Of a stretch of 46,540 bases of DNA, positions 1-19,338 are shown in pieces. This DNA is from a virus. Its lineage: Duplodnaviria > Heunggongvirae > Uroviricota > Caudoviricetes. Position 1 is the first letter of the stretch. Each line of letters starts with the position of its first letter. Below the pieces are notes generated by a model. That model made no database searches. It was given only the letters and a program-made list of their open reading frames with translations, and had not been told where the DNA came from. The stretch lies in IMG/VR virus record IMGVR_UViG_2645727604_000006; one strand, given 5' to 3'. Made by a program: the position numbers and the translations under genes.

Positions 1-207
1 AGGAGATCAGTGAAGGTAATTTAAAAACGGTTCTGTGAAAGTGACACGAACCGATCTCCATCGATGTTACTCACCGATCTCCTTCACGGTAATACGCAAT
101 GGATGAGGCATTACAGCACCGCACCCCATAAATGCCGTCAGAATCGTTTTTAAAAGGGTTTTAAAAACGGTTTTATTTCCCATTTTATCCTTTCGCGTTA
201 TGGCAGG
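1..207 (+). promoter_or_regulatory. AT-rich leader upstream of the Mu-like I gene carrying direct and inverted repeats; candidate late promoter/operator
   Basis: Direct repeat TTTAAAAACGGTT at 20-32 and 160-172. Inverted repeat AGGAGATCAGTG (1-12) vs CACCGATCTCCT (72-83), 11/12 complementary. No convincing ORF. Function inferred only from position. Confidence 0.2.
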
Positions 208-1785: not shown

Positions 1786-1795
1786 GGAGTAAAAC

Positions 1796-2704: not shown

Positions 2705-2707
2705 TGC

Positions 2708-3040: not shown

Positions 3041-3043
3041 CCC

Positions 3044-3475
3044 ATGTCTTACGCCACACCGGAACAGTTCATCAGGGCGTTCAGTGAACGCGAGGCGTGC
3101 ACACTGACGGATGAAGAGATGACCGGGCTTATCAACGAGGAAAAGCTGGCCTCCGCGCTTGCGCGTGCCAGTGCCCAGATTGATGGCTATCTGGTGGGGC
3201 GTTACCGGACCCCGTGGCCTGACAGCCCGGGGATTCTGGTGGGTTACTGCTGCGATATCGCCCGTTATCACCTGGCGACCGATTACCGTATCTGCTCAGA
3301 AGAAATTCAGATGCGCTACCGGGACGCCATCCGCTTTCTGGAGAAAGTCGCGGCAGGACAAATCAACCTCGGGCGGGATACGTCCGGCAGCGTGATCCCG
3401 TCATCGTCACAGGTGCGTATCCGCTCCGGCTCCCGTCAGTTCGGGCGTGAGTCCACGCGGGGAGGTGCATTCTGA
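3044..3475 (+). CDS. Mu gp36-like head-tail protein (DUF1320-like)
   Basis: 143-aa ORF, ATG after AAGGAG; synteny with the Mu late region. Confidence 0.5.
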   Translation: MSYATPEQFIRAFSEREACTLTDEEMTGLINEEKLASALARASAQIDGYLVGRYRTPWPDSPGILVGYCCDIARYHLATDYRICSEEIQMRYRDAIRFLEKVAAGQINLGRDTSGSVIPSSSQVRIRSGSRQFGRESTRGGAF

Positions 3476-3528
3476 TTACTGAAATTGAACGGGCGCTGGT
3501 TGAACGTCTGCGTTGTGGTCTGGGGAAA

Positions 3529-4110
3529 ATGGTGCGGGAAGTCCGCACCTATGCAGGTGAACTGGATGAAGACCCGGGCCGGATTGTTCGCAGCCTTCCG
3601 GCAGTCTGGGTGACGTTCGGCGGCATCGCGAAAACCGAACGCTATTCCACGTCACGCCGGAAATACATTGCCACCGGACGCTTTGTGGTTGTGGTGGGTG
3701 ATTACAACACCCGCAGCGAACAAAGCGCCAGACAGGGAGGCACCGTCCGGGATGAGGTCGGTACAAACCTGCTGGTTGAATCCGTCCGTCGCCTGCTGAC
3801 CGGTCAGGATTTGGGGCTGGAGATTGATTATTTCGAACCCGGGCGTGTCAGGACGCTGTTTAACACCGGCGTGGCAGAGCGGGCAATGTCCGTGTTTGCC
3901 TGTGAGTTTGATACCCGCTGGGTGGAGCACGCGCTGGAGAACGGCAAATGGCCGGAGCGCGGTGCAGAAGCGGATATGGCTTTCAACCGTTACCACGGCC
4001 GTCTGTCAGACCCCGACCCGGATTTACTGCGAATTGGTACGCAATACGGCGCAGATATCTGTGGTCTGGATGAATTAAGAGAGCAACAGCATGAACAAAA
4101 TGAAGGTTAA
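3529..4110 (+). CDS. Mu gp37-like protein (DUF1834-like); true start probably upstream
   Basis: The reading frame stays open back to 3469 and encodes ITEIERALVERLRCGLGKMVRE, which looks protein-like. GGAGGTG sits at 3461-3467, so a non-ATG start (CTG 3472 or ATT 3475) overlapping the upstream stop is possible. The first ATG/GTG is at 3529. Confidence 0.5.
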   Translation: MVREVRTYAGELDEDPGRIVRSLPAVWVTFGGIAKTERYSTSRRKYIATGRFVVVVGDYNTRSEQSARQGGTVRDEVGTNLLVESVRRLLTGQDLGLEIDYFEPGRVRTLFNTGVAERAMSVFACEFDTRWVEHALENGKWPERGAEADMAFNRYHGRLSDPDPDLLRIGTQYGADICGLDELREQQHEQNEG

Positions 4111-4324
4111 GGCGGCTCCCGGGATGAAGTTCCCGATGGAGGATAACGCCCGGAAATACATCACCACGGAAGCGGTGATCGTTGAAAACACCGCTTATTA
4201 CCGGCGCGCTGTTCAGGATGGTGACCTGATTCTGGTGGCTGAAGAGCCTGAAACGGCAGAACAGGACACCGGACCAGAAAAAGCGAAGGCGAAGAAAGAG
4301 AAACAGGTGAGCTCCGATGAGTGA
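4091..4324 (+). CDS. small Mu gp38-like protein, lysine-rich acidic C-terminus
   Basis: 77-aa ORF overlapping the sheath gene start by 8 nt (translational coupling). Confidence 0.4.
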   Translation: MNKMKVKAAPGMKFPMEDNARKYITTEAVIVENTAYYRRAVQDGDLILVAEEPETAEQDTGPEKAKAKKEKQVSSDE

Positions 4325-5738
4325 AATTCAGTTTGACACCATTTCGGGCAGTATCCGTAAGCCCGGTGTGCATTTTGAGTTCAATACCCGGCTGGCCGTT
4401 AACACGTTGCCGGGTAACGAACAGCGTGTTCTGGTGATTGGTCCGATGCTGCCTGATGGCACCGCCACCCCCCTGAATGCGGTTTCCGTGTATTCCGAAG
4501 ACGAAGCGGATTTGTATTTCGGGGCCGGTTCACTGGCCGCAGCAATGGCGCGCGCGGCCATTAACGCCAACAGCTATCTGCAACTGGATGTTATCGGTAT
4601 TGCAGACGGTGGTGCAGGAAAAGCGGCAACAGGCGCAGTTAAAGTCACCGGCACTGCAACCAGCAGCGGTACGCTGTCGGTATGGATTGCTGGCGAGCAG
4701 ATCGCCATTAATGTGGACGTCGGGGATGAACCGTCGAAAATCATTCCGGCACTGGTGACGGCAATGACGCAGACGCCATCGCTTCTGGTCACGGGGGAAT
4801 ACAAATCTGACACCTCTCAACTGACAGTGACCGCCCGGACCAAAGGTACCTGGGGGAATGATATCACCCTGTCGGTATCCACCACTGCAACCGGCCTTGT
4901 AGTGGCTACCACGCCGATGGCGAGCGGCGAAATGGACCCGGATATTCAGCCCGCACTTGATGCGGTCTTTGCTGCCGGTCACAACATTCTGATTTGTCCG
5001 TTCAGTACCACGCCAGCCCTTGCCGCCCTGAAGCAGCACCTGGAGAAAACCGGGAACGCGATGGAACAGCGTGGCGCGATTGGTTGTGCGGGCTGGACAG
5101 GTAGTCTGGGAAACGGGATCACCCTGGCAGCCGGTGTGAACAGCGGGCGCGTGTCTGTCCCCTGGTATCGTGGTTCTGTGATGCTTCCTGCTGTGCTGGC
5201 CGCCATCTACGGCGCAGTAATGGCGAGCGAAGAAGACCCGGCACGCCCGCTGAACTCGCTGGCGCTGTCCGGGCTGGATGTGGTCGCCATGTCACAGCGC
5301 GAAAGCCGTAACGAGCAGGAAAGCGCCCTGCATAACGGCCTGACACCGGTTGAGGTTGGACCGGGTAATACGGTGCAGATTGTGCGTGCGGTCAGTACCT
5401 ACACGGTGAACGCTCAGGGTGTGGCTGATGTCTCGTTACTGGATATCACGTCCATCAGAACACTGGACTACACCCGTAAGGCGTGCCGCGAACGTATCAG
5501 CCTTCGCTTCCCGCGTGAAAAACTCAGCACCCGAACCATCGCAAAAGTGGAAAGCGAACTGTATGACGTGCTGCTCAAGCTGGAGGAGTCTGAAATTCTG
5601 GAGAATGTGGAAGCGAATAAGGCAAAACTGCGCGTTCAGCGAAACGGGAAAGATGCAAATCGCCTGGACTGCGCGATCCCTGCCGACGTGGTTAACGGCC
5701 TGCATGTGTTTGCCGGTCGCATCGACATGATTTTGTAA
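4317..5738 (+). CDS. tail sheath protein (Mu gpL-like)
   Basis: 473-aa ORF, the right size and position for a contractile-tail sheath, directly followed by the tube gene. Confidence 0.75.
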   Translation: MSEIQFDTISGSIRKPGVHFEFNTRLAVNTLPGNEQRVLVIGPMLPDGTATPLNAVSVYSEDEADLYFGAGSLAAAMARAAINANSYLQLDVIGIADGGAGKAATGAVKVTGTATSSGTLSVWIAGEQIAINVDVGDEPSKIIPALVTAMTQTPSLLVTGEYKSDTSQLTVTARTKGTWGNDITLSVSTTATGLVVATTPMASGEMDPDIQPALDAVFAAGHNILICPFSTTPALAALKQHLEKTGNAMEQRGAIGCAGWTGSLGNGITLAAGVNSGRVSVPWYRGSVMLPAVLAAIYGAVMASEEDPARPLNSLALSGLDVVAMSQRESRNEQESALHNGLTPVEVGPGNTVQIVRAVSTYTVNAQGVADVSLLDITSIRTLDYTRKACRERISLRFPREKLSTRTIAKVESELYDVLLKLEESEILENVEANKAKLRVQRNGKDANRLDCAIPADVVNGLHVFAGRIDMIL

Positions 5739-5750
5739 GGAGCCTGATAA

Positions 5751-6125
5751 ATGTCCCTGAAAGAATATATCGGCTCGATTGTGTTGGAAATTGACAGCCA
5801 GGAAATCGAGATCACCGACCTTGATGTTCAGATCAACACCGGGCGAAAGCTGGTCAAGACCATGAACAAAAGCGGCAGGGCTAAAGGCTTTGCCCGTGGC
5901 ATTGCCACCTACGAACTGTCCGTTTCGGCGGTTATTCCTGATACCAACGAGCCGGACTGGGAAAATCTGGAAGGTGTGAAAATCTCGCTGTACCCGCTCA
6001 GTAACAGCGGCAAACGCACCTCTTATCTGGACTGCTTCACAACCGAAGTGGGTGAGAAATACACCGTCGATAATGAAGCGAAAATTGATATCAAAATGGC
6101 TGCACTCAGGAAGGTGGAAGGATGA
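5751..6125 (+). CDS. tail tube protein (Mu gpM-like)
   Basis: 124-aa ORF after the sheath gene, with AAGGAG upstream. Confidence 0.7.
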   Translation: MSLKEYIGSIVLEIDSQEIEITDLDVQINTGRKLVKTMNKSGRAKGFARGIATYELSVSAVIPDTNEPDWENLEGVKISLYPLSNSGKRTSYLDCFTTEVGEKYTVDNEAKIDIKMAALRKVEG

Positions 6126-6505
6126 CGATTATCGCTACACAGACCGGCGAACTGTCCGATGGTCTGGTTTTTAACGGCACCATTCATAAAAACTTTGAGC
6201 TGCGTCTGCCGGTCATGCGTGATAACGGGCAGGCACTGGAAGAAACTGAAGAACGCTTTCAGACAGTGGACGGCTTCGCGGCGGATTATTACTACCGCTG
6301 TGCGGTAATGGCGGCAACGCTGGTCCGTCTGGGGGATATTCCGCAGGAAGAACTGACGGCGGAGCTGTTGCACGACAACATGACGCCGGAAGATTTTAAT
6401 ATTCTGCTGGCATCACGCAACGTCCTGAAGGTAAAGCGGAGCGGCGGGAATCCCGGCTCGCCGGACTCCGGCTCGCAGTCCTTATCCTCGGGCGCTACGG
6501 AATAA
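6122..6505 (+). CDS. tail assembly chaperone (Mu gp41/Y-like)
   Basis: 127-aa acidic protein between the tube and tape measure genes, the canonical chaperone position. Confidence 0.55.
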   Translation: MTIIATQTGELSDGLVFNGTIHKNFELRLPVMRDNGQALEETEERFQTVDGFAADYYYRCAVMAATLVRLGDIPQEELTAELLHDNMTPEDFNILLASRNVLKVKRSGGNPGSPDSGSQSLSSGATE

Positions 6506-6678
6506 CCGAAGAACAAATCATGACCATGAGCCGTCCCGAGCTGGACGGCTGGCTTGCCGCCGTTGACAGGCTGAACGGCGGCGGCTCAGGAAGAAAGGAC
6601 ACCTCACAGACCACCCGCCAGTCATTTAAATCCCTCAGAAAGAAACGCAGAAAAGGTAAACAGAAAAATGGCCGGTAA
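6400..6678 (+). other. -1 frame extension ORF downstream of the chaperone gene; candidate programmed-frameshift product
   Basis: The -1 frame is open from 6400 to the TAA at 6676-6678, overlaps the chaperone 3' end by 106 nt, and ends just as the tape measure gene starts (6668). It encodes ...ITEEQIMTMSRPELDGWLAAVDRLNGGGSGRKDTSQTTRQSFKSLRKKRRKGKQKNGR. The slip site is not identified. Confidence 0.35.
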
Positions 6679-8950
6679 TTTCAAAGTTGGCATGACCCTG
6701 ACTGCGAAGGACGAAGCCTCGCAGGTTCTGGAAAAGGGACAAAAACAGGTTATCAAAGCCACCGAAGGTGTAACAAAGGCAACCCGGAAGGCAGGTGCAG
6801 AGCAGACGCGTACCGGGCAGGAAAGCGTTAACAGCACGAAAAAGGCGGCAAAAGAGATACAGCGTGCCGCCCGTGCCCGGGAAACGCTCGGTATTCGTGC
6901 AGAACGCGAGATCCGGCGTGAAATTTATCAGACGGTTGCCAGCTATAACCGTCTGGCCCGCGCCGGTTTTGAATCTGCGCAGGAGCAGGAGCGCGCCATG
7001 CAGGCCACCCGGGAAAAAGCCCGGGCACTCAAGCGTGAACTGGATGGCGTCACTCAGGCTCAGATGAAGATGGCGAAAACGCCTGTTATCCCTGAACGGG
7101 GGCGTTTTGCCCGTGCGGCTGCATTTGGCGGGAATGCCATGACAATAGGCGGCGGAATTATGGCAGGAGCCGCCATTATGACGCAACCAGTCAGAAATCA
7201 AATGAGTTATGAACGTCAGCTCAGCATGATGGCGAACACGGCGTTCAGTGATGGTGGTCTGGAAGGCAGGCAGTTTGGGCGTGAAAAGCTGAAAAACAGT
7301 ATCCGCGCGGCGGTAACGTATGGTGGCGGAACGAAAGAGGATGCAGCTGAAGCAATGAATGAGATGTTGGCCAGCGGCGCTTTTTCCTGGGATACCGCGA
7401 ATAATCTCTTACCGCAGATTATGAAATTTGCTACTGCATCCGGCGCATCTCCACGCGATCTGGTCACTATGGCGGCCAAAGCTAAACAAACATTTGGACT
7501 GACAGATGACGACCTCCCGGCCATGTTTAATATGGCTGTCGCAGCAGGTAAAGCGGGTAATTTTGAGCTACGGGATATGGCGGAATATCTTGGACCTCAG
7601 ATGGCATTAGCTGGTAACGCCGGAATGAAAGGACTGGATGGACTCCAGAAATTACTGGCATTTAATGAGGTCGCAGGGATTGCCGCAGGCAGCAGCAGTG
7701 AAGCAGGTAATAACGTTGTAAACCTGCTGGCCAAACTTTTCAGTAGTGAATCAGCAACAAGGGCGAAAAGCATCACGATTGATGGCAAAGGTATTGATCT
7801 ACCTGGTACGTTGACCCGAGCTATGGAAAACGGCATTGATCCGATAGAAGCATTTTCACGCCTCACTGATAAAGTCACCGCGAACAACAAACAATATCAG
7901 GAGCTTCAGAAGCGTCTGGCAGCAACAAAAGACAAAGGCCAGCAGGACAAAATCCTAGAGTCTATGGCGAAAATTCTTGAGGGGTTCGGTGTTGGTGAGC
8001 TTGTTGGTGATATGCAGGCACTGAAGGCAATCCTGGCTTACAGGAATAACCCGGAATACCGAAAGCAGGTCGAAACTGAAATCAGTCAGCAACGCACCCT
8101 GCCGGAAGGTCAGCGCGCCGGAGATCTGGATTTTAAATTCATGTCAGGTACAAATGATTTTAAAACCGAACAGGCTAAAAACACGCTTGAATTTTCACAA
8201 ATGGACAGCGTGAAAAAGCTGGCGGATGCATCCGGTACTGTGGCCGATGCCATAAGCTGGGCGGGTGAAAAATTTCCGGGGCTGACCACAGCAGTGGTGG
8301 GTGCCACGACCGCAATTGAAGCGATGACCGCAGCGGCTCTGACATGGGCCGGGATCAAAATCCTGACCGGGGGTAAACCCGGTGGCAAGACTGACGAGGT
8401 TGTCGGTGATGTAATTGAAAACACGGTCAAAAAAGGCAAAGGATTTAAATTCCCCGGCATCGCCGGTAGCCTGCTTTCTTTCGGTGGCACCGTTACGGCA
8501 CTGGCCACTGCAACCAGCCCGGAAGAAGACGCCGCCGTCGAAGGAAGCGAGGAGCGCTGGAAAAATATACGGGCTAAATATCCTCAGTGGCTGATTGATG
8601 CTGCCCGTGAAAAATATCAGCCGTGGTGGCAGTTTGGCGAAGGTTACTCAACAGAAAACGAGAAATGGATCCAGCAGTATCTTGACGAACTGAAAAAAAC
8701 CGGGGTTATCGCCGGTGATTCTCTGCCAACACCAGAACAAGTCCGACAGCAAGCCGGAATGGCAGCGTCTGAAACGGCATCAAAGCAACCCGGACGCATC
8801 ACCCAGCCGGAATACCTTACGCACTGGGGGCCACCTGCCAGCCCCATTAATTTCACCACACAACTGGTGCTCGATGGTCAGGTCGTGGCGGAGGCAGTGA
8901 ACAAATACAACCTTCAGGACGGCAACAGAAGCACGGGAGGAACTTACTGA
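6668..8950 (+). CDS. tail tape measure protein (myovirus, Mu-like)
   Basis: 760-aa ORF, alanine/glycine-rich with predicted helical segments, downstream of the chaperone pair. Confidence 0.8.
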   Translation: MAGNFKVGMTLTAKDEASQVLEKGQKQVIKATEGVTKATRKAGAEQTRTGQESVNSTKKAAKEIQRAARARETLGIRAEREIRREIYQTVASYNRLARAGFESAQEQERAMQATREKARALKRELDGVTQAQMKMAKTPVIPERGRFARAAAFGGNAMTIGGGIMAGAAIMTQPVRNQMSYERQLSMMANTAFSDGGLEGRQFGREKLKNSIRAAVTYGGGTKEDAAEAMNEMLASGAFSWDTANNLLPQIMKFATASGASPRDLVTMAAKAKQTFGLTDDDLPAMFNMAVAAGKAGNFELRDMAEYLGPQMALAGNAGMKGLDGLQKLLAFNEVAGIAAGSSSEAGNNVVNLLAKLFSSESATRAKSITIDGKGIDLPGTLTRAMENGIDPIEAFSRLTDKVTANNKQYQELQKRLAATKDKGQQDKILESMAKILEGFGVGELVGDMQALKAILAYRNNPEYRKQVETEISQQRTLPEGQRAGDLDFKFMSGTNDFKTEQAKNTLEFSQMDSVKKLADASGTVADAISWAGEKFPGLTTAVVGATTAIEAMTAAALTWAGIKILTGGKPGGKTDEVVGDVIENTVKKGKGFKFPGIAGSLLSFGGTVTALATATSPEEDAAVEGSEERWKNIRAKYPQWLIDAAREKYQPWWQFGEGYSTENEKWIQQYLDELKKTGVIAGDSLPTPEQVRQQAGMAASETASKQPGRITQPEYLTHWGPPASPINFTTQLVLDGQVVAEAVNKYNLQDGNRSTGGTY

Positions 8951-10299
8951 TGGGCTGGGCTGAAAACCTGCAAAACGCCTCCTTTCGTGGCGTGCAGTTT
9001 GATGTACTGAACACGGATGAACAAATCAGCCGCGACCATGCGGTCTATGAATACCCGTTTGTTGACGGGGCGGATTTGCACGACCTCGGGCGCAAGGCGC
9101 GACCGTTCCGCATGACGGCGTTCCTGTGGGGGGAGTATTACGAATATAAACTCGAAAAGCTGATCGCCGCCCTGGACGAAGGCGGCGATGGTGAGCTGAT
9201 TCACCCGGTTTACGGCTCCGTACCGTCGGTGATTGTGACCGGCTACAGCATTCGCCATGACGCAGAAAGCCCGGACAGCTGCACCATCGACATGAGCTTT
9301 CTGGAGAACCGCACCGGTAGCGCGTTGTTCAGCACCCCGTTACCGGAGCTGTTCGCGCAACAGTTGTTTGATGAACTGGACACTTTACAGGCGCGGTTAA
9401 GTGATTTTTTTGATGCCGTTGCTGCACCTTTAAATACCGTTAACAGCATGATTAAAAAAGCCCAGACAGTGCGTGCCACACTGGTGAATACCCTGCTGTC
9501 TTTCAAAAGTGATTTTGTCTCCACTGTCGATAATATCGTGTCACTGGCAGGCGAACCCGGAAAATTTATCAATGAACTGGCAGAGGTGCTGGAAATCCAC
9601 ACATCAGATGTCGGGCAACCGGTGCCGGTTCTGCAACGTGTTGATTCTGCCACCCGGACCGGGTTGGCAGGAGAGACGACCGTCGCCAGTTCTGCGACAG
9701 TGATGAACTGCTGGAATAAGGTCATCACTGATATGGATGAATTTGTTGCGCTGCCTGTTGCCCTGGTCAGTGGCGATAAAGTACCGGAGGTGGTACTTCC
9801 TGCGGATGCCTCGCCAGACGATGTGCAGGATGTGAAAGCAGTTTACGCAACACAGGCCGCATCTGAACTGGCCAGTGTTGCAATGGCGATACTGGTTGAT
9901 GATGCGCAGTCAGAACAGCTTATACCGGCGGATATCGGGCGACTGGTCGGGGATGTGCGCACCCGCTTACAGGCTGCCATCACGCTGTTCCGTGAACGCT
10001 ATGAAGGCGAACGCGAACGGATAACCGAAACCGCATCACCGCTGGGGCTGATGTACCCGGAAATCATTCAGAGCATGAAAAACGTGGCGGCATCCGTGCA
10101 GGATGTCGGCCTGCTGGTTCTGTCACGCCGCCCACCGCTGACGCAGAAACAGGTGCAGGCGGACAGCTGTCTGCTGTTGCTGGCGTGGCAGTGGTACGGT
10201 GATTACAGTCGTGCGGCAGAACTGCAACGTCTGAACCCGCAGCTGCGTGACCCGAACAACATAACCGCCGGGGTGGTCATTAATGCCTACGCAAAATAA
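8950..10299 (+). CDS. Mu gpN-like DNA circulation protein
   Basis: 449-aa ORF directly after the tape measure gene (ATG overlaps its stop); the N-terminus matches the Mu N family pattern. Confidence 0.65.
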   Translation: MGWAENLQNASFRGVQFDVLNTDEQISRDHAVYEYPFVDGADLHDLGRKARPFRMTAFLWGEYYEYKLEKLIAALDEGGDGELIHPVYGSVPSVIVTGYSIRHDAESPDSCTIDMSFLENRTGSALFSTPLPELFAQQLFDELDTLQARLSDFFDAVAAPLNTVNSMIKKAQTVRATLVNTLLSFKSDFVSTVDNIVSLAGEPGKFINELAEVLEIHTSDVGQPVPVLQRVDSATRTGLAGETTVASSATVMNCWNKVITDMDEFVALPVALVSGDKVPEVVLPADASPDDVQDVKAVYATQAASELASVAMAILVDDAQSEQLIPADIGRLVGDVRTRLQAAITLFRERYEGERERITETASPLGLMYPEIIQSMKNVAASVQDVGLLVLSRRPPLTQKQVQADSCLLLLAWQWYGDYSRAAELQRLNPQLRDPNNITAGVVINAYAK

Positions 10300-11494
10300 C
10301 GAAGACAAAATCAGCCTGGTCATTGCCGGAAGGTCGCATTCTGACTGGAACAGTTATCGTATTGACAGCGATTTCCTGAAAGCTGCCGACGGCTGGCAGC
10401 TTCAGCTGGGGCTGCCTGAAAAGGTGTTCCCGGCGGATATCGTCCGGGGCGCACAAATCCGGTTGCAGGTGGGAGACGAAACGGTGCTCAGTGGGCGCAT
10501 AGACAGCGTGCGCCGCAGTGTATCCCGTCAGAGCTGCACGCTGACCCTGTCCGGGCGTGATGATGCCGCCATCCTGGTGGACTGTGCCGCGCCAGTGTTC
10601 AGCGCCAACCAGCTGACGCTGGACGAGGTCATCGACAGGATTGTCAGACCGCTGGGGATACAGCGCATCCGTATTCAGGCGTCCGGTGTGTCACGTAATG
10701 ACAAAGTCGTTATTGAGCCGGGGATGCGTGCGTGGGATGCACTGGCCAAAGCTGCCGCCGGTCGCGGCTTATGGCCGTGGTTTGAGCCTGACGGGACGCT
10801 GGTTGTGGGTGGCCCTGACTACACCACCACGCCGGTGGATACGCTGATTCTGAAGCTGAACGGCACCGGGAACAACGTGATGGAGCTGGACGATACCCGG
10901 TCCATTAACGGCTGTTTCTCCGAACTTACTGTGCTGGCCCAGAGCCACGCCCGCCGCGCAGACAGCAAGAAACAGGTGGCCGTGGTGCCGCTGGATATCT
11001 GGAACGAGGACGGCAGCGTGCGCACATTGTCCGGGCAGGACAGCGGTAATACGGACAGTGGCCAGACAGGCATTCATAACATGAAAGCCGTTGCCACCGA
11101 CCCCACCGTGGATTATTACCGCCCGCAGATAATCACCCAGGGCGACACCAGCAATCTGGAGCAAGTGAACTGGCGCGCAAAAAAAATGATGAGTGATGCC
11201 CGCCTGTCGGGGCTGGATATCGTCGCGCTGGTTGCAGGTCATCGCACGGCAGATGGTGTTCTGTGGCAGCCCGGCCAGCGGGTGCGGATTGTCAGCGAAC
11301 TCCACGGCATTGATGCCATCTTTTTCCTGATGGGGCGTGAGTTCAGCGGAGGCCGGAACGGGCAGACAACCCGGCTCCGCTTTAAGGAGGACGGCGTGTG
11401 GATACCTGATGCCTTCCCGCGCGAGAAGAAACGCCATCACCGCAGGGGCAAAAAGAAAAAAGAGGTCGCCATTGTTAAGGTCTGGGAGAAATGA
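10283..11494 (+). CDS. baseplate hub / tail protein (Mu gpP-like, P2 gpD-like)
   Basis: 403-aa ORF in the Mu P position. Confidence 0.65.
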   Translation: MPTQNNEDKISLVIAGRSHSDWNSYRIDSDFLKAADGWQLQLGLPEKVFPADIVRGAQIRLQVGDETVLSGRIDSVRRSVSRQSCTLTLSGRDDAAILVDCAAPVFSANQLTLDEVIDRIVRPLGIQRIRIQASGVSRNDKVVIEPGMRAWDALAKAAAGRGLWPWFEPDGTLVVGGPDYTTTPVDTLILKLNGTGNNVMELDDTRSINGCFSELTVLAQSHARRADSKKQVAVVPLDIWNEDGSVRTLSGQDSGNTDSGQTGIHNMKAVATDPTVDYYRPQIITQGDTSNLEQVNWRAKKMMSDARLSGLDIVALVAGHRTADGVLWQPGQRVRIVSELHGIDAIFFLMGREFSGGRNGQTTRLRFKEDGVWIPDAFPREKKRHHRRGKKKKEVAIVKVWEK

Positions 11495-12144
11495 TGTGGG
11501 ACAAAGTTAATCAGCGCGTACAGCAGGCACTGGCCGCCGTTCGCCAGGCATTCAGGGTGGTGACCGGTACGGTGGACAGTTCGACCAAAGTACAGCTGCT
11601 TCAGCTTAACGGGCTGGCAGGCGAACAGCTGGACGGTGCGGAGTATTTTCAGCATTACGGCCTCACCACATCCCCGCCGCCCGGCTCAATGGGTATTGCC
11701 GTTCCGCTGAACGGCAATACCTCCCATACTGTCGTGGTGGCCACAGAGCACGGCGCATATCGTCTGACGGAACTGAAACCCGGGGAAGTGGCCCTGTATA
11801 CCGATGAAGGCGCGAAAATCGTACTGAAGCGCGGACGGGTTATTGAAACCGAATGTGACGTTTATCGCGTGAAATGCAAACGCTACGAGGTTGAGGCAGA
11901 GGAGAACGCCACATTCACGACACCGTTACTGACAGCCAGTGACAGGCTGACGGTGGAAGGCAAAATCACCGGCAACGGTGGCATGGCCATCAGTGGGGGC
12001 AAGGGATACACTGCCACCTTTGAAGGCAATATCAACCATGTGGGTGGAGTGATTACCTCCGTTGACGTCACCATTAATGGCGTTAAAATCGGAACGCACA
12101 AACATCCAACCCCACACGGCATGTCTGACACGCCGGTTAATTAA
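11491..12144 (+). CDS. baseplate assembly/spike protein (Mu gp45-like, P2 gpV-like)
   Basis: 217-aa ORF with a glycine-rich beta region, in the Mu Q position. Confidence 0.6.
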   Translation: MMWDKVNQRVQQALAAVRQAFRVVTGTVDSSTKVQLLQLNGLAGEQLDGAEYFQHYGLTTSPPPGSMGIAVPLNGNTSHTVVVATEHGAYRLTELKPGEVALYTDEGAKIVLKRGRVIETECDVYRVKCKRYEVEAEENATFTTPLLTASDRLTVEGKITGNGGMAISGGKGYTATFEGNINHVGGVITSVDVTINGVKIGTHKHPTPHGMSDTPVN

Positions 12145-12197
12145 GTGCTGAACACCCTCACCTGATTCTGACCTGTCCATGCTGCCAGACTGGCGGC

Positions 12198-12548
12198 ATG
12201 GACCAGACGATTTCACCTGCAACCGGCGACTACGAACGCCGTCGGATTTATACCCTTCATAACGCGGTTTATCTGCGACTGGCGACGCCGCTTGGCAGTT
12301 ACTGGGCGGATGCGTCGCTGGGGTCACGCCTGCACGAGCTGAAGCGGGAAAAAGACGTTTCCCGTGTTCATAAGCTTGCGGCGCAGTATGCCAGCCAGGC
12401 ACTTCAGCCCCTGCTCGATGACGGGCGGGCAAAATCCATTACCGTTGACACAAAACCGGGGCAGCGCGGCTGGTTGTTGCTGTTAATCACCGTCACGGAT
12501 AACGCGGGCACACCGCAGACGTTTGAACACCCTGTGAGGATTATGTAA
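12198..12548 (+). CDS. baseplate protein (Mu gp46-like, P2 gpW-like)
   Basis: 116-aa ORF between the spike and J-like baseplate genes. Confidence 0.55.
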   Translation: MDQTISPATGDYERRRIYTLHNAVYLRLATPLGSYWADASLGSRLHELKREKDVSRVHKLAAQYASQALQPLLDDGRAKSITVDTKPGQRGWLLLLITVTDNAGTPQTFEHPVRIM

Positions 12549-13627
12549 TGCCGTTTCCTGTTCCGGGCGTTGCTGAAAACACAGAACGCCAGCTACGTGA
12601 TATCGCTAACGCCCTGCCGGGCGAAACCATCGACACCGGCGCTGACAGCGATTACCGCATTCGTGCAAATGCCGTATCCGGCGTGGCGGACGGACTGTAT
12701 ATGCATCAGGGGTGGATACTCCGTCAGGTGTTTCCTGATACGGCAGACCCTGAATATCTGGAGTTGCACTGCCGCACGCGCAATGTTTTTCGTAAAAAAG
12801 CAACGGCCTCATCCGGTCCGGCAGTGATTACCGGCACACCCGGTAAAACGCTGCCAGCCGGTGCGGAAATTCGTGGTGAAGGTGTCAGCGTGGCCACCGC
12901 AGCAGACTGCACCGTCGGTGATGAAGGCAGCGCAGAGGTGACGGTAAAAAGCACTGCCACGGGTGCACAGACGAATGCATCCACGACTCAGACGGCAACG
13001 CTGGTCAGCCCACCTGAAGGCATCAACAGCACGGTGACGATTAAATCCCTGACCGGCGGAACGGACAGGGAAAGCGACGCCGACCTGCTGGCGCGTTATC
13101 TGGATATTCTGCGCAGGCCGCCCGCTGGCGGTAATAAATATGATTACAAACGCTGGGCGCTGGAAGTGGATGGCGTTACGTCTGCGTATGTGGAGCCGTT
13201 GCGTCGTGGACTGGGGACGGTTGATGTGGCCATTACGTCAGCCAATGACCTCCCTTCGCAGGAACTGATTAATGCCGTGCTGGCACATATTGAGGAAGTC
13301 CGCCCGGTGACAGCGAAGGACACGATGGTGCTGGCCCCGACGAAAAAAGCCGTTGATTTCGTTGTCCGGGTAAAAACCAGTGGTCTTACTGTTGAACAGA
13401 TAAAACCACAGATAACTGAAGTTATCACGGATTTTATGAACCGGCTGGAGCCGGGGCAGGAATTAATTATTTCACAACTGGAAACTCAGATTTCATTAAT
13501 TTCTGGCGTCAGTGACCGGCGAATTATTATGCCGTCAGATAATGTAAAAGCAGTTGTCAATGAATCCACATGGGAGTGGCTGCGTCCGGGGAGTATTGAT
13601 ATCCAGCCATTTCCCCGGGAGAGTTAA
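12548..13627 (+). CDS. baseplate J-like protein (Mu gp47-like)
   Basis: 359-aa ORF whose ATG overlaps the previous stop; typical baseplate wedge size and position. Confidence 0.7.
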   Translation: MPFPVPGVAENTERQLRDIANALPGETIDTGADSDYRIRANAVSGVADGLYMHQGWILRQVFPDTADPEYLELHCRTRNVFRKKATASSGPAVITGTPGKTLPAGAEIRGEGVSVATAADCTVGDEGSAEVTVKSTATGAQTNASTTQTATLVSPPEGINSTVTIKSLTGGTDRESDADLLARYLDILRRPPAGGNKYDYKRWALEVDGVTSAYVEPLRRGLGTVDVAITSANDLPSQELINAVLAHIEEVRPVTAKDTMVLAPTKKAVDFVVRVKTSGLTVEQIKPQITEVITDFMNRLEPGQELIISQLETQISLISGVSDRRIIMPSDNVKAVVNESTWEWLRPGSIDIQPFPRES

Positions 13628-13630
13628 TAC

Positions 13631-14203
13631 ATGAATACGGTTGATTTATTTCGTGCCATGTTACCACCGGTCAGCTATGACCCGAACGGGAAATATATTT
13701 CAGCAGAACTGAACGCAGAAGCAGCCATTATGGATGAAGTAAAAGCGTCAGCTGCACGAGTGCTTGCATCTGTCACACCATTTTACGCATCCATGACGCT
13801 GTCTGACTGGGAACGAGTGTATGGAGTAATACCCCGCGACGGTGCCACACAGCAGGAACGCCGAGAAAATATTCTTATAAAGATGGCTGCAACTGGTGGG
13901 TTATCTATCCCTTATTTTAAACAACTTGCAGCCAGCCTCGGGTACACCATAACAATTACTGAACTTCATCCATTCAGAGCGGGGATAAACCGATGTGGTG
14001 ATCGTCTCTATATAACAGATGCCCGATGGATTTGGCAGGTTAATGTCACAGGAAGCAGAACGCCAGCCTACAGATTCAGAACCGGAGTATCTGCTGCCGG
14101 GGAGCCGTTACTTTCCTTTGGTGCCCCTGTACTGGAAGAAACATTTAAAGACCTTAAACCCGCTTTTACTTATTGCCATTTCACATATAAGGAGGAGCAG
14201 TAA
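13631..14203 (+). CDS. tail protein (Mu gp48-like, P2 gpI-like)
   Basis: 190-aa ORF between the baseplate J gene and the tail fibre gene. Confidence 0.6.
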
Positions 14204-15027
14204 TGCAAAATCTGATGCCCCCGATAAATACACCGGATCAATTGTTTCATGATGGTGACCCCACTCAGGGGATAGAAGGAACCCTCGTGACTGCTGGTTA
14301 TTTAAACAATCAGCAGGGGGCAACCCGTGATTTACAGCAGGAACTCCTTAATGTTCTTGGTGGTGCACATATTCAACCTGACCCCAAAAAAACGGATCAG
14401 CTACTTACCGCGCTTCGCGCGTTGCTGTTAAGCCGCAAAAATCCGTTTGGCGATATCAAATCGGACGGCACAGTACCAACGGCTCTCGAAAACCTTGGTT
14501 TGGGAGAAGGTGCTCCAGCTATTGGCGTTCCGTTCTTCTGGCCGTCCGCAGCAATGCCAGATACCGTAATCGATAGCTGGTCCAGCATGGTGTTTTTGAA
14601 GTTCAACGGCGCGAAATTCTCTGCCACTGATTACCCTGTGCTGGCGAAAGTGTTTCCGGCGCTGGCATTACCTGACGCACGCGGTGATTTCATTCGTATC
14701 TGGGATGACGGGCGCGGGATTGATGTCGGACGTACCCTACTTTCAGGGCAATCACACACAATTATGGATCATGCACACAATATGGAATTGTGGACGGGGG
14801 ACGGGCTTGCCGCAGGAAGTGCACGGGAAGGAGTAAACCCAGGAATACTGGCTACATATGGTGACGGGGGAATAGTTAAAACGGACGAACCCGGTCTTAA
14901 GGTGCCTTCCTCACTACGAGCTCTTAGCTCTCGTAGTGTTAAACGTTATGGTGAAATTAGTGGACATGTAGGTACAGAAACCCGTCCACGAAATATTGCA
15001 TTTAACTTTCTGGTGAGGGCTAAATAA
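14203..15027 (+). CDS. tail fibre protein: constant N-terminal part fused to the currently expressed variable part
   Basis: 274-aa ORF. The crossover site at 14484-14509 lies inside the gene (about codon 94-102). The C-terminus [16 protein letters not shown] resembles tail-fibre tips. Confidence 0.75.
14484..14509 (+). repeat. left crossover site of the invertible segment (gix/cix/hix-like)
   Basis: TCTCGAAAACCTTGGTTTGGGAGAAG. The core TTGGTTTGGGAGAAG (14495-14509) recurs as its exact reverse complement at 16379-16393. Confidence 0.65.
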
Positions 15028-15620
15028 TGAAACCTGTTTTTGATGAAAATGGGCTGGCTACAGTGCCGGGTGATATGCGTTGTTTTTATTATGATGCAGT
15101 AACGTCTGAATATACGGGCTGGTCTGATGAATATATTAATACTGGCGTAAGTATGCCCGCCTGTTCCACTGGTATTGACCCGGGCGAATACATTCCGGGG
15201 AAAGTGGCAGTATTTACGGGTAAGGGATGGCGCCATGAAGAAGACCACCGCAATGAGACTGTTTACTCAATCGAAAATGGCGCAGCTGTTACAGTGGATT
15301 ATATCGGTGCCATCAAAGACGGTTATGTCACGCTTTCACCGTTAACGCCATACGATAAATGGGATGGTGAGAAATGGGTGACGGATACCGAGGCACAGCA
15401 TAGCGCCGCACTAGACGCGGCAGAAGTAAAGCGCCAGTCGCTGATTGATGCTGCAATGGCTTCCATCAGTCTGATTCAGCTGAAATTACGAGCCGGGCGG
15501 AAGCTGACGCAGGCAGAAACCACCCGACTTAACGCTGTGCTGGATTACATTGACGCGGTGGAGGCAACAGATACCAGCACCGCGCCTGATGTCATCTGGC
15601 CTGAACTGCCGGAGGCGTAG
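15027..15620 (+). CDS. tail fibre assembly chaperone (Tfa, U-like)
   Basis: 197-aa ORF immediately after the fibre gene. Its C-terminus (LDYIDAVEATDTSTAPDVIWPELPEA) is paralogous to that of the minus-strand Tfa. Confidence 0.75.
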   Translation: MKPVFDENGLATVPGDMRCFYYDAVTSEYTGWSDEYINTGVSMPACSTGIDPGEYIPGKVAVFTGKGWRHEEDHRNETVYSIENGAAVTVDYIGAIKDGYVTLSPLTPYDKWDGEKWVTDTEAQHSAALDAAEVKRQSLIDAAMASISLIQLKLRAGRKLTQAETTRLNAVLDYIDAVEATDTSTAPDVIWPELPEA

Positions 15621-16032
15621 GCCATTCAATATCTGGCGCACCGGAAGTATCGACCAGTTCCAGTGCGTCCAGATAATCCAGCCACAAATTATATTGCGCC
15701 AGTTCCTCACCTTTCAGGCGACCAATCGCCGCTTTACCAGGCCATTGCTTACTGTTTATGTATTCGTTGACCTGATTAATCAATTGCTGCTTTTCCAGTT
15801 CGGCTGCGGCAATTTGTTCCTCATGAGTTGGCGGTGGAATATCAATCCATGCAGGCATTCCGTCGATGACACCTCTGTATTTTCCTTCTGGTGCTTCCTT
15901 CATAAATTCGGCGGCAACAGTGTCGTCAATTTCGATTCCATCATCGGGCCATTCACCGGATTCCTGATAAGCGATTTTAAGCTCCACAGGGAAAAACGCA
16001 TTTTTATCGGCACTGAAAATATATTTCTGCAT
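15592..16032 (-). CDS. alternative tail fibre assembly chaperone (U'-like)
   Basis: 146-aa ORF ending LDYLDALELVDTSGAPDIEWPTPPAVQAR, convergent with the + Tfa and overlapping it by 29 bp. Confidence 0.7.
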   Translation of the reverse strand: MQKYIFSADKNAFFPVELKIAYQESGEWPDDGIEIDDTVAAEFMKEAPEGKYRGVIDGMPAWIDIPPPTHEEQIAAAELEKQQLINQVNEYINSKQWPGKAAIGRLKGEELAQYNLWLDYLDALELVDTSGAPDIEWPTPPAVQAR

Positions 16033-16034
16033 TT

Positions 16035-16433
16035 CTACCGTCCTATCGAAATATAACTGAATCTGTATTGCTGTGAGATATCACTGGTTGCCACACGCCA
16101 CGCTGAATTACTGATATGTTCAAAATTTACAGACAAAACCTGCGGGGCAGGATTCGACGGGTCTGACTGAACGGCATCAGACATAACACTGACTGAAACC
16201 ATCGGCTGATTAGGGAATGGTATAGGGAAGTGTCCACTGATAAAGCGGGTCGTGTTTCCTGAAAAAGTGCCAAACTGAACAATATATCCACCTGGTAGCC
16301 TGAACCATCCCGAACCAGAAGCGAATGCTCCCATATCCGGTATCTGATTATCTCCTGTGCCCACATCCCTTTTCGCCGCTTCTCCCAAACCAACGTTTAA
16401 GAAAATGCAGAGATTACGGCTAACTGGCATCAT
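16035..16433 (-). CDS. alternative tail-fibre variable segment (S'-like); silent in this orientation
   Basis: Minus-strand ORF running through the right crossover site. It encodes NVGLGEAAKRD at the site, matching [10 protein letters not shown] in the + fibre gene. No constant N-terminal part is attached in this orientation. Confidence 0.6.
   Translation of the reverse strand: MMPVSRNLCIFLNVGLGEAAKRDVGTGDNQIPDMGAFASGSGWFRLPGGYIVQFGTFSGNTTRFISGHFPIPFPNQPMVSVSVMSDAVQSDPSNPAPQVLSVNFEHISNSAWRVATSDISQQYRFSYISIGR
16379..16405 (+). repeat. right crossover site of the invertible segment, inverted
   Basis: CTTCTCCCAAACCAACGTTTAAGAAAA, whose reverse complement contains TTGGTTTGGGAGAAG. Confidence 0.65.
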
Positions 16434-16460
16434 CTCCGGTTTTTATTCAGGGGGATGCTC

Positions 16461-16556
16461 ATGCTTATTGGCTATGTACGCGCATCAACAAATGACCAGG
16501 ACACCGATTTACAACGCAATGCGTTGAACTGTGCAGGATATGAGCTGATTTTTTGA
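16461..16556 (+). pseudogene. truncated Din-family serine DNA invertase (Gin/Pin/Cin-like); only the first 31 codons remain
   Basis: Encodes MLIGYVRASTNDQDTDLQRNALNCAGYELIF then TGA, which matches the conserved N-terminus of Gin/Pin/Cin invertases (MLIGYVRVSTNDQ...). Similarity stops near codon 31; downstream sequence is unrelated. Confidence 0.75.
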
Positions 16557-16592
16557 GGGTAAATCATCAGCATGAGACTAATAATTTAGCGT

Positions 16593-16652
16593 CCAATTCT
16601 GGGCTTTTTGGTTGCGCTCTCTCCGCCCAGAATTGTGCGCCAATTAGCCCAG
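16593..16652. promoter_or_regulatory. palindromic repeat cluster in the junction region; candidate operator or hairpin
   Basis: CCAATTCTGGGC (16593-16604) with an 11-bp perfect inverted partner GCCCAGAATTG (16625-16635), 20-bp spacer. A third partial copy CCAATTAGCCCAG at 16640-16652. Confidence 0.3.
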
Positions 16653-17253
16653 AAAAAAACGCGAAGTTACAAACCGTTTGTCGCAACAGCTGGTGGTCAG
16701 TGTCGCTGCACACCTGTTGTTACGGCATGAATGCAGATTACCAAATCACCTGGCTGTAAGTAACCACAGAGAACTTTACCTGACTGTGGGGGGCGAGTTG
16801 TGCAGGAACTTAACCGCTGGTTTCGTGACGGAAGAGGACTTTATGTTCATGTTATTCGTTGGGAGCCAGAAACACAGCGCGTTATCTATCTTCGCAAAGA
16901 CTACCCGCATGAGTGCTTTAGTCCTTTGTGGAAATTCAGGCGTGATTTTGTTGAGTGTGAAGGACCACCAGCATATTGATTCTGCAATTCCGGGACGTTA
17001 CACTGTTCAGGCACCTTATAAAGCGGGTGCCGGGATTGGCGTCCTGAAATTGTCAACGGCGATGTATGACGCGCCAGCGTCTTTTTTATCGTCCGCATTT
17101 GCTCACATCCAGATTATGGTGGGCTGGGCGGGGGCACCGAAAGGTGCGCCGGTCTCCGTTGACGCCGGTTACGCCAACCCCGTCCAGTTCACCACCAGTG
17201 AAATTGGCGTTTCCGGTGGTGGAAGTTTTTCACTGTCAACGGAGGCTGCCATC

Positions 17254-17811
17254 ATGGCTACGATCCAAGCCCTCACTCAACCTGAAATCACCATTGACAA
17301 CGGCCAGGCCGTTACCACTTCTTTGGCTGTTGCCAACTTCTTCTCCAAGCGTCACGACGATGTGCTGAAAAAGATCCGCACTCTGGATTGTTCCCCTGAG
17401 TTTTGTGCCCGCAATTTTGCGGAGACATCGATTTCGGTAAATCAACCGAACGGTGGTACACGCAAGCTCCCTTGCTATCAAATCACACGAGACGGTTTTG
17501 CGTTTCTTGCTATGGGTTTCACGGGTAAACGTGCTGCCCGGTTCAAAGAGGCATACATCAATGCCTTTAACCAGATGGAAAAACTGCTTTCAAAGCCATC
17601 CACGCTGAGCGATGCCGCAGATAACGCCAGCGTGCTTTACTCCCACCTGTCGGTAATCCACAAGGTCTGGCTGCAGCAGCTTTATCCTATGTTGGCAAAA
17701 GCTGAATCTCCGCTGGCTGTTAGCTTATATGATTATATTAATGATGCTTCGGCGCTGGCCTGCCTCATAAATTTGTCGCTGAACCCTTCAGAGGTAAGGG
17801 GGCGCAAATGA
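17254..17811 (+). CDS. Rha-family phage regulatory protein
   Basis: The N-terminus MATIQALTQPEITIDNGQAVTTSLAVANFFSKRHDDVLKKIR fits the Rha pattern. GGAGG at 17241-17245 lies 8 nt before the ATG. The frame is open much further upstream (track ORF from 16678), but that part does not look protein-like. Confidence 0.6.
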   Translation: MATIQALTQPEITIDNGQAVTTSLAVANFFSKRHDDVLKKIRTLDCSPEFCARNFAETSISVNQPNGGTRKLPCYQITRDGFAFLAMGFTGKRAARFKEAYINAFNQMEKLLSKPSTLSDAADNASVLYSHLSVIHKVWLQQLYPMLAKAESPLAVSLYDYINDASALACLINLSLNPSEVRGRK

Positions 17812-18032: not shown

Positions 18033-18847
18033 GTATGGAGCTGATGGTTAAAGCGATGAAAATTCGAGTGGGTAATCCATTGCGAAAACTGGTTCTGATC
18101 AAGCTGGCTGATAATGCCAGCGATCAGGGGGAGTGCTGGCCCAGCTACCAGCATATTGCTGACCAGTGCGAGATTAGCAAACGTTCTGTGATGAATCATA
18201 TTGCGGCCCTTTGTGAGTCCGGGCTGGTAAAAAAAGTCACCCGGAAAGGTGAAAAAGGTAACTCAAGTAATATCTATCTCCTTCATCTGGATGGTGCAGG
18301 AGATTCACTAGGGGGTAGTGCAAATAATTCACTATCTGGCGCAGCAAATTCACCAGGTAGTGCAGGAGTTGCACCAGGGGGTAGTGCAGGAGATTCACCC
18401 AGAACCAGTCACTCTTTTGAACCAGTCAAAGAACCAGTCAATGAACCAATAGCTGTTGGTGCATCAGTTGATGAGTCTGTGCGAGTTCGTTCAAACCGAC
18501 CGGAATACTCTCCGGAGTTTGAGCAGGCATGGCTGGCATATCCCAAACGTGCTGGTGGCAATTCAAAATCTGCAGCCTTCAAAGCCTGGAAAGCCCGTTT
18601 GAATGAGGGGGTAAACCCCGAAACCATGCTGGAAGGTGTGAAACGCTACGCGGGCTGGGTATCTGCGATGGGTAACAGCGGCACACAATTTGTGAAACAG
18701 GCTGTCACGTTCTTTGGTCCGGATCGTCATTTCGAAGAATCCTGGGAAGTTCCTGCGGTATCTGCAGCCAGACGTGAGGACCCGTACTTCAAAGCCAGTT
18801 ACGACAACGTGGACTACAGCCAGATCCCGGCAGGATTCAGGGGGTGA
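18029..18847 (+). CDS. putative replication initiator / winged-helix DNA-binding protein with an internal repeat-encoded linker
   Basis: The N-terminus (LRKLVLIKLADNASDQGECWPSYQHIADQCEISKRSVMNHIAALCESGLVKK) looks like a wHTH. A low-complexity linker is encoded by DNA repeats. The C-terminal domain contains AWLAYPKR. The architecture is analogous to lambda O with ori iterons inside the gene. Confidence 0.45.
   Translation: MSMELMVKAMKIRVGNPLRKLVLIKLADNASDQGECWPSYQHIADQCEISKRSVMNHIAALCESGLVKKVTRKGEKGNSSNIYLLHLDGAGDSLGGSANNSLSGAANSPGSAGVAPGGSAGDSPRTSHSFEPVKEPVNEPIAVGASVDESVRVRSNRPEYSPEFEQAWLAYPKRAGGNSKSAAFKAWKARLNEGVNPETMLEGVKRYAGWVSAMGNSGTQFVKQAVTFFGPDRHFEESWEVPAVSAARREDPYFKASYDNVDYSQIPAGFRG
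18293..18440 (+). repeat. iteron-like direct repeats inside the initiator gene; candidate origin
   Basis: GGTGCAGGAGATTCAC at 18293-18308 and 18383-18398. GTAGTGCA three times. ATTCAC four times. GAACCAGTCA at 18402, 18419 and 18431. Confidence 0.4.
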
Positions 18848-18849
18848 TC

Positions 18850-19338
18850 ATGAGTCTTTTGAATGAAGTTCAGAAATACATTGAAGCCCATCCGGGGTGT
18901 ACTTCCGGAGACATTGCGGATGCTTTTGCAGGTTACTCACGGCAGCGCGTTCTGCAGTATGCAAGCAAGTTACGTCAGAGTGGGCGTGTGGCTCACCGTT
19001 GTGAAGGAGATACACGCAGACATTTCCCGCGCCTGACTGAGAGAGCGCAGGAGCTGGAACCACAACCAGTTCGTGAAACCAGACCTGTGCGCAATTTCTA
19101 TGTCGGCACTAACGACCCGCGGGTGATTTTGTGCCTGACCCGCCAGGCGGAAGAACTGGAGTCAAGGGGCTTATACCGTCGTGCTGCAACCGTGTGGATG
19201 GCGGCATTCCGTGAAAGCCACTCCCAGCCAGAACGAAACAATTTTCTGGCACGTCGTGAGCGGTGCTTACGGAAAAGCAGCAAGCGCGCTGCATCGGGTG
19301 AAGAGTGGTATCTGTCAGGGAATTACGTGGGGGCTTAA
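18850..19338 (+). CDS. PerC-like (Pch-like) transcriptional regulator with an N-terminal wHTH-like region
   Basis: The C-terminal motif ELESRGLYRRAATVWMAAF...RRERCLRK resembles the PerC family signature (ELESKGLWRRAA.RWL) as recalled. AGGGGG precedes the ATG at 18850. Confidence 0.45.
   Translation: MSLLNEVQKYIEAHPGCTSGDIADAFAGYSRQRVLQYASKLRQSGRVAHRCEGDTRRHFPRLTERAQELEPQPVRETRPVRNFYVGTNDPRVILCLTRQAEELESRGLYRRAATVWMAAFRESHSQPERNNFLARRERCLRKSSKRAASGEEWYLSGNYVGA

Follow-up and report, generated by a model that had tools for sequence, protein, structure and literature searches.

A Mu-like Escherichia coli prophage lineage with a 31-codon invertase relic carries its tail-fiber switch in both orientations and probably depends on invertases supplied in trans

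Invertible tail-fiber segments are a textbook form of bet hedging in phages. The 46,540-nt viral contig IMGVR_UViG_2645727604_000006 (hereafter the window, meaning the whole stretch of DNA analyzed) carries such a segment next to an invertase gene that breaks off after 31 codons, and the question raised by this locus is whether a switch in that condition is dead. An earlier note on the same DNA, made from the sequence alone, took the segment to be likely locked in one fiber specificity unless an invertase acted on it in trans. We propose instead that it is a trans-dependent host-range cassette of the pix type, similar to the P segment of element e14, found at the right end of a Mu-like prophage and flipped by the invertase of a co-resident element; we put the probability of this reading at about 0.78. 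A mobile, apparently intact Mu-like lineage carries only the cis-acting parts of the switch, and yet both orientations occur within it. Literature searches turned up no previous account of a Mu-like switch that lacks its invertase. All of the components, as well as cross-complementation among Din-family invertases, were already known, so that the conceptual advance is modest and it is the natural trans-dependent arrangement that would be new.

Crossover sites, fiber cassettes and invertase relic

A repeat search of the window returned two inverted arms at 14490-14509 and 16379-16398 (20 nt, 95% complementary). Within these arms, the exact 15-mer TTGGTTTGGGAGAAG is found at 14495-14509 on the plus strand and at 16379-16393 on the minus strand, its only two copies in the 46.5 kb, which confirms the cores given in the earlier note. 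Those cores had also been placed inside 26-bp sites of the gix/cix/hix kind, and alignment to known sites agrees with that assignment: the left site agrees with its e14 counterpart in E. coli K-12, the left pix site, at 26 of 26 positions, the right site agrees with the right pix site at 25 of 26, and in both the half-sites follow the pattern seen in Mu gix and Salmonella hixL. The right site lies at 16380-16405, and the left site is best placed at 14483-14508 rather than from 14484. The two sites are inverted relative to each other, with conserved half-sites and matching central dinucleotides (TT and AA). Because of the 26/26 and 25/26 matches to e14 pix, chance does not explain the inverted repeat. 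Judged by these alignments, the segment is a Din-type (pix/gix/cix/hix) invertible tail-fiber segment whose crossover sites are intact.

The open reading frame (ORF) of the fiber, at 14203-15027 on the plus strand, is intact and encodes 274 aa; upstream of it lie homologs of Mu gp47 (Baseplate_J) and gp48 (Phage_Mu_Gp48), both recognized by Pfam. The segment holds two sets of fiber tip and tail-fiber assembly chaperone (Tfa) on opposite strands, as had been claimed, and Pfam recognized a Tfa domain in both and a fiber-tip domain in the minus-strand set, while the plus-strand fiber part had a weak match (Table 1). The alternative, gp53-like tip belongs to a 132-aa ORF at 16035-16433 on the minus strand (Gp53-like_C, E = 3e-9). 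Both fiber peptides read the core in the same frame, as NLGLGEG and NVGLGEA, and the correspondence of peptides at the two sites noted previously therefore stands. When inversion between the central dinucleotides was simulated, the constant part of the fiber (Sc) joined the gp53-like tip in frame to give an intact 216-aa fiber, followed by the 146-aa alternative chaperone (Tfa'); both orientations are therefore coding competent. Inversion between the 26-bp sites would thus exchange the variable part and its chaperone (Sv and Tfa) for the alternative pair (Sv' and Tfa') on a constant fiber N terminus.

Din systems encode a full serine invertase, about 180-190 aa long, beside or inside the segment, whereas at this locus only codons 1-31 of one are present. 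The truncation had been described correctly: by tblastn, the relic corresponds to PinE residues 1-31 at 90% identity, and use of an upstream ATG at 16455 would lengthen it to 33 codons. Its product would lack nearly all of the catalytic domain and the entire DNA-binding domain. In alignments, homology to pinE ends at about 16552. A longer stub reaching about 16574 through a +1 frameshift, to which megablast extensions to 16566-16571 had pointed, was rejected on the ground that the alignment with pinE, gin and hin ends at about the same place, near 16552.

Both orientations occur beside the same stub

Among members of the lineage with an identical stub, the segment is in the window's state in 8 and flipped in 7, as scored by the strand of the long Tfa gene relative to the stub. 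Two of these members, in strains 20KM0223N (L010) and MEI148-20EC (L011), share the same insertion at yeiP and flanks that are 100% identical over 7265 bp, and differ only by an exact inversion of positions 1615-3488 with a 15-bp overlap at each junction. The same inversion separates E2348/69 (L004) from tcmA_3 and E423 (L007 and L013) at 99.7% identity. Opposite-orientation contigs, whose search the earlier note had suggested, include one with the window's own junction between the phage right end (attR) and the surrounding lambdoid prophage: IMG/VR contig L017 is 100% identical to the window over 3253 bp at this junction and has the segment inverted at 99.95% identity, while another IMG/VR contig (L020) is identical to the window. 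Of the comparisons made, the one with L017 bears most directly on the question. On the strength of these alignments, the switch is not frozen, at least in the lineage, and the claim that it is locked in one orientation is not borne out.

According to the frozen-relic explanation of the earlier note, the invertase and its enhancer have been lost and the prophage is held to one fiber specificity. The invertase in cis is indeed nonfunctional at 31 codons, the window contains no other, and its copy of the prophage carries an insertion sequence (IS) and is possibly degenerating. Four independent assemblies of E2348/69, moreover, all show one orientation and have a single megablast match to the 5' region of pin, as would befit a static segment in a genome without a close pin homolog. 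Decay of this kind is difficult to reconcile, however, with the presence of one and the same stub at 12 insertion sites, in a lineage with signs of recent movement and no other obvious damage, with the retention of enhancer-equivalent DNA (see below), with two orientations that are about equally common, and with near-clonal genomes separated by exact inversions and a contig in which this very junction is accompanied by the inverted segment. We consider a frozen relic unlikely. A narrower version, in which the invertase gene decayed locally in this copy, was rejected, as the identical junction is present in 20 complete genomes and 4 IMG/VR contigs.

Orientation could also differ without any site-specific invertase, through RecA-dependent recombination at short inverted repeats or through replacement of the whole cassette. 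Cassettes are shuffled among phage types (the same segment occurs at 99.5% identity in a P2-like prophage), members of the lineage differ in their Sv and Tfa alleles, and the stub of one member (L005) is more pinE-like than the rest, which suggests gene conversion. Replacement by another copy would be expected to leave sequence differences, however, and between L010 and L011 the segment and its flanks are 100% identical with junctions that fall exactly in the 15-bp core. Recombination through RecA is further disfavored by repeat length, since 15-20 bp of identity is below the usual length for RecA-dependent exchange in E. coli. Taken together, a route without an invertase appears very unlikely.

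Lastly, an assembler confronted with an inverted repeat may choose its path through it arbitrarily, so that opposite orientations would be artifacts. The window itself comes from a draft assembly, and L017 is short, with a terminal inverted duplication (its first 60 nt are the reverse complement of its positions 1930-1989) that is the mark of an ambiguous assembly graph. Such a graph would nonetheless need reads for both junctions, which amounts to a mixed population; because of the duplication, the right flank connects in this assembly with either end of the segment, a hint that the culture was mixed. The records for L007, L010, L011 and L013 are labeled complete or chromosome level, and the natural repeat, at 20 bp, is shorter than the usual assembly k-mers, so that each junction needs spanning reads. 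We find it barely credible that assembly alone produced the opposite orientations. The evidence for inversion comes from comparisons between genomes, and for the window's own strain the claim of flipping is carried by its twin L017.

Supply of the invertase in trans

Apart from the stub, tblastn with PinE and Gin detected no PinE- or Gin-like sequence in the window, nor did it detect any in the complete 35.8-kb prophage of E2348/69, and on these results we rejected the idea that phage or window encodes a further invertase. Because the complete E2348/69 prophage contains no other such sequence, the recombinase is by elimination expected to come from elsewhere in the cell. We propose that a Pin/Gin/Cin/Hin-family invertase of a co-resident prophage or plasmid would flip the segment in trans, that host Fis would act on the retained enhancer, and that in hosts lacking an enzyme of this family no inversion would take place. 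The earlier note's own proviso of an invertase acting in trans appears to be the case, given that both orientations are found with an identical stub.

Classical work has shown that Din-family invertases can stand in for one another. Potential donors are at hand: pin-like genes are present in hundreds of E. coli genomes, and the genomes of both L010 and L011 (the NZ_CP151045 / NZ_CM149554 pair) contain a second match to the pin 5' region. In strain LT2-3 (NZ_CM141449, L029), a segment 99.5% identical to that of the window lies in a P2-like prophage that has an intact 197-aa recombinase on the opposite side of the segment. These cassettes are in circulation across P2-like, e14/SfV-like and Mu-like phages. 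The uniform orientation in the four E2348/69 assemblies, with their one pin match, lends weak support to the expectation that the segment stays put where a close pin homolog is absent.

If trans supply is confirmed, the host range of the lineage would depend on which mobile elements share the cell, a form of interaction between prophages, and the interchangeability of invertases, long known from the laboratory, would have a natural instance. For annotation, a "truncated invertase" beside an invertible segment should not be taken to mean a dead switch.

Enhancer-equivalent DNA in the relic

The Fis-dependent enhancer, which in Din systems lies within the 5' region of the invertase gene, had been thought to be probably lost with the rest of that gene; this claim is not borne out either. 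In hin, the enhancer is 65 bp long and is located about 100 bp from a hix site, with a Fis site at each end and the motifs ATTTA and TAATG between them (PMC3798978). We mapped its counterpart by aligning the window to the actual sequences of hin (from the Salmonella locus), gin and pinE. At the Salmonella hin locus the enhancer reads GTGTCAACAATTGACC...GATTTACAGCGTAATGCG...GTGCAAATTGTGACC, a stretch that spans hin codons about 9-29. The equivalent DNA in the window, 16482-16545, is identical to hin at 47 of 64 positions and to pinE at 56 of 64, and covers invertase codons about 8-28. Candidate Fis cores are found at 16482-16496 and 16531-16545, with ATTTA between them at 16507-16511, and the center of the near candidate core is about 97 bp from the crossover center, so that placement and motifs are in line with those described for hin. 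Because pinE homology runs to about 16552, the enhancer equivalent lies wholly within the 31-codon stub, and the breakpoint of the relic is only about 7 bp past the distal candidate core.

It is tempting to go further and to suppose that the pin relic has been kept as an enhancer-only cis element, the phage having dropped its invertase while retaining crossover sites and Fis enhancer, and having outsourced switching to the invertases of co-resident prophages and plasmids. We hold this only tentatively and think it somewhat less probable than not. Selection for a minimal enhancer would agree with a breakpoint about 7 bp past the distal core, although the latter is a single event noticed post hoc. 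Were it true, diversification of the tail fiber would hinge on the mobile-element content of each host. In any event, the stub offers a natural minimal construct for studying what an enhancer requires in cis.

Several observations count against trans supply, or against the part of the enhancer in it. No trans-acting invertase was identified in any strain in which flipping is seen, and the second pin-like place in L010 and L011 was left unread. The window's own copy may or may not be able to flip in its host, of whose draft genome this contig was covered. For the stub, binding of Fis and activity as an enhancer are predicted from homology; 8 of the 64 positions differ from pinE, two of them within the distal candidate Fis core. 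The candidate cores would be 49 bp apart if both are of the form G-N13-C, against 48 bp in hin, and one core may be placed 1 bp off. Finally, given the IS21-family insertion, the window's copy may no longer make virions, in which case its switch would be moot.

Table 1. Features of the invertible tail-fiber segment and the adjoining prophage end, in window coordinates
Feature	Coordinates	Strand	Remarks
Constant fiber N-terminal part (Sc)	14203..14494	+	Outside the invertible segment; joinable to either variable part; ORF 14203-15027
Left crossover site, pix-type, 26 bp	14483..14508		CTCTCGAAAACC TT GGTTTGGGAGAA; central dinucleotide 14495-14496; inverted repeat with right site
Variable fiber part in expressed orientation (Sv)	14495..15027	+	Weak tail-collar-like match: Pfam Collar E = 0.0026, below curated cutoff
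Tfa, tail-fiber assembly chaperone, 197 aa, paired with Sv	15027..15620	+	Caudo_TAP E = 2e-26
Tfa', alternative assembly chaperone, 146 aa, convergent with Tfa, 29-bp overlap	15592..16032	-	Caudo_TAP E = 1e-34
Alternative variable fiber part (Sv'), silent in the window orientation	16035..16393	-	Gp53-like_C E = 3e-9
Right crossover site, pix-type, 26 bp	16380..16405		TTCTCCCAAACC AA CGTTTAAGAAAA; central dinucleotide 16392-16393
pin-type serine invertase relic, 31 codons plus stop (MLIGYVRASTNDQDTDLQRNALNCAGYELIF*)	16461..16556	+	Pfam Resolvase N terminus E = 6e-4
DNA equivalent to the Fis-dependent recombinational enhancer (Hin/Gin/Pin)	16482..16545		GCATCAACAAATGAC...GATTTACAACGCAATGCG...GTGCAGGATATGAGC
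Joint between pin relic and phage right end, 25 bp	16553..16577		Conserved in all stub-bearing members
Right end (attR) of Mu-like transposable prophage, 94 bp	16578..16671		Ends ...GTTACA; all members end here

Comparison with known inversion systems

Compared with described switches, the element has every structural trait of a Din-type system except the adjacent invertase, with enhancer function predicted from sequence. In the P segment of e14 in K-12 (stfP-tfaP / tfaE-stfE / pinE), the crossover sites correspond at 26/26 and 25/26 positions, a constant fiber part is likewise followed by two convergent sets of variable part and chaperone, the overlap between tfaP and tfaE is also 29 bp, and the invertase gene begins at a similar distance of about 68 bp beyond the right site. 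The pin gene of e14 has 184 codons, however, against 31 here, and it is followed by mcrA, whereas the stub in the window is followed after 25 bp by a transposon-type right end; e14 is an integrase-type prophage and the present element a Mu-like transposable one.

The G segment of phage Mu, inverted by Gin (also in SfMu and D108), occupies the same position at the right end, after gp47-gp48, with S/U facing U'/S'. Gene order in the window (gp47-gp48-S-U-U'-S'-invertase-attR) mirrors that of Mu, the distance from crossover center to invertase start is 67-68 bp in both, and the terminal repeats of attR, with two copies of TTCTGGGC(G) facing inward and one inverted, are arranged like R1-R3 of Mu attR. 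Unlike in Mu, gin is here a relic, com and mom are absent, the sites are of the pix rather than the gix type, and the fiber tips and chaperones belong to other families.

In the Hin/hix flagellar switch, the half-site pattern of the 26-bp sites is shared with the window, and the enhancer, like the enhancer-equivalent DNA of the window, lies in the first ~30 codons at about 100 bp from the site. Hin, by contrast, flips a promoter rather than coding cassettes, and is intact and encoded inside its own segment. A precedent for action at a distance is Mpi of Bacteroides, a trans-acting "master" invertase that works on many distant invertible promoters. As in the model proposed here, the recombinase on which the invertible DNA depends is encoded at another place in the genome; Mpi is, however, a dedicated host regulator of its own loci, whereas the phage would depend on the invertase of a different mobile element. 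The Mpi family is named in PMC9881135.

A mobile Mu-like lineage that carries the stub

The stub with 100 bp beyond it was searched against 5,426 complete E. coli genomes, and stub plus right end were present at full length in 20 of them; the same junction is found in 4 IMG/VR contigs, and GTDB species representatives gave 0 matches to it. In an alignment of 13 members (the window and 12 other loci), all are collinear up to ...CGCGAAGTTACA at window position 16671, after which unrelated host DNA begins. These 13 represent 12 distinct insertion sites, and the junction is identical in all. Insertions lie in a phn ABC gene, hyfB, eutC, mhpT and scpC, upstream of melA and of yeiP, near pta, sstT and pphA, in an RHS region and, for the window, in a lambdoid prophage. 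Two loci, L009 and L011, are 99.97% identical at different insertion sites, so that the lineage has been mobile recently. Truncation and 94-bp attR are 25 bp apart, and since the identical junction is common to a whole mobile lineage, the stub is, on the alignment, an ancestral, lineage-wide state rather than a product of recent decay.

The terminal sequences are those of a transposable phage. Within attR, one copy of TTCTGGGC lies in one orientation at 16597-16604 and two in the other at 16625-16632 and 16647-16654, while the left end of the E2348/69 prophage (L015, 6945-7090) has three direct copies; the copies at both ends are probably transposase-binding sites. The termini of the E2348/69 prophage are of the form TG...CA (TGGGG... 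and ...GTTACA), flanked by a 5-bp target duplication, CACTG, in eutC. One member, L001 (NZ_OY754349), has a T in place of the terminal A of ...GTTACA at its right junction, and hence no canonical CA end; this copy may be immobilized, or the target base may merely be different.

The left part of the window's own prophage copy is outside the window, and early genes were read in the E2348/69 member (97.5% identity to window 99-14718), whose annotated left end has genes for a repressor, ner, a Mu-type transposase (A) and a B ATPase. Of the 57 annotated features of this prophage, the stub is the sole pseudogene. Late genes of the Mu type were recognized from Baseplate_J and Phage_Mu_Gp48, from precomputed Pfam matches to Gp45, GP46 and DNA_circ_N, and from the annotation of E2348/69 homologs, and together they comprise protease I, head protein T, sheath, tape measure, N, P and gp45-gp48. 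The Mu-like head and tail region at window 99-13600 had no megablast match among 50,697 deposited phage genomes, and is present in dozens of E. coli chromosomes; it seems to represent a family of transposable phages without a sequenced isolate. SfMu was considered as the lineage and rejected: it keeps an intact Gin and mom (PMC4406740), and nothing close to the phage body turned up among the phage records searched.

Related attR sequences occur in 72 genomes, and only 20 of these have the stub. Two stub-less relatives, L022 (NZ_CP082831) and L023 (NZ_CP041433), have the same baseplate genes and a related attR, with different fiber modules at the right end and no invertible segment. One of the two has a single fiber and the other two tandem fiber and chaperone sets on one strand, which comprise a prophage tail fiber N-terminal domain protein and a DUF4376 protein. 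The phage of L022 is inserted in the prohead protease gene of another prophage.

The 25-bp joint at 16553-16577 showed no convincing homology to pinE or to L022 and L023. The stub could have arisen by deletion of gin-like DNA; alternatively, the joint could have formed when a cassette of the e14/P2 type was captured beside attR, which is conceivable because the stub-less relatives have noninvertible fiber modules directly beside attR. In L005 (NZ_AP042480, OkiPb01676), the same stub and attR are joined to a different baseplate module (DUF2612 in place of YmfQ) and the stub is nearer to intact pinE at positions where the other members differ, a pattern that points to mosaicism or to gene conversion by complete pin genes. 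In the window, the 65 bp between right site and stub (16406-16470) are markedly unlike those of all other members of the stub lineage, while stub and attR are nearly identical, and a recombination breakpoint is therefore placed just outside the segment. In L012 (NZ_AP031375, strain 160-11H1), the segment itself is decaying, with frameshifted or partial Tfa genes and a truncated gp53-like tip; to judge from this sequence, there are copies in which the switch is genuinely degenerating.

The prophage copy in the window

In the E. coli draft genome to which the window belongs, the Mu-like prophage is inserted in a lambdoid one. At its left, window 1-98 matches at 100% identity the terminus of an IS21-family element (transposase and ATP-binding helper) in records of Escherichia phage PhiR12, and Mu-like sequence begins at 99, between homologs of Mu G (virion morphogenesis) and I (protease). 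With the end of the IS joined to phage sequence at 98/99, the IS interrupts this copy of the prophage, and it probably caused the contig to break there.

On the right, at window 16672-17811, the insertion is found 21 nt into a homolog of SfV orf37, an Ash/Rha-type regulator. It thus lies in the early right operon of the lambdoid prophage, where it separates cI-cro-orf36 from the replication genes, and the two prophages are nested; the lambdoid one is probably crippled as a result. The lambdoid prophage also has a gene for a PerC-family protein at 18844-19338 (PF06069, precomputed Pfam). PerC regulators are typical of prophages in enteropathogenic and enterohemorrhagic E. coli (EPEC/EHEC), a hint as to the source strain's pathotype.

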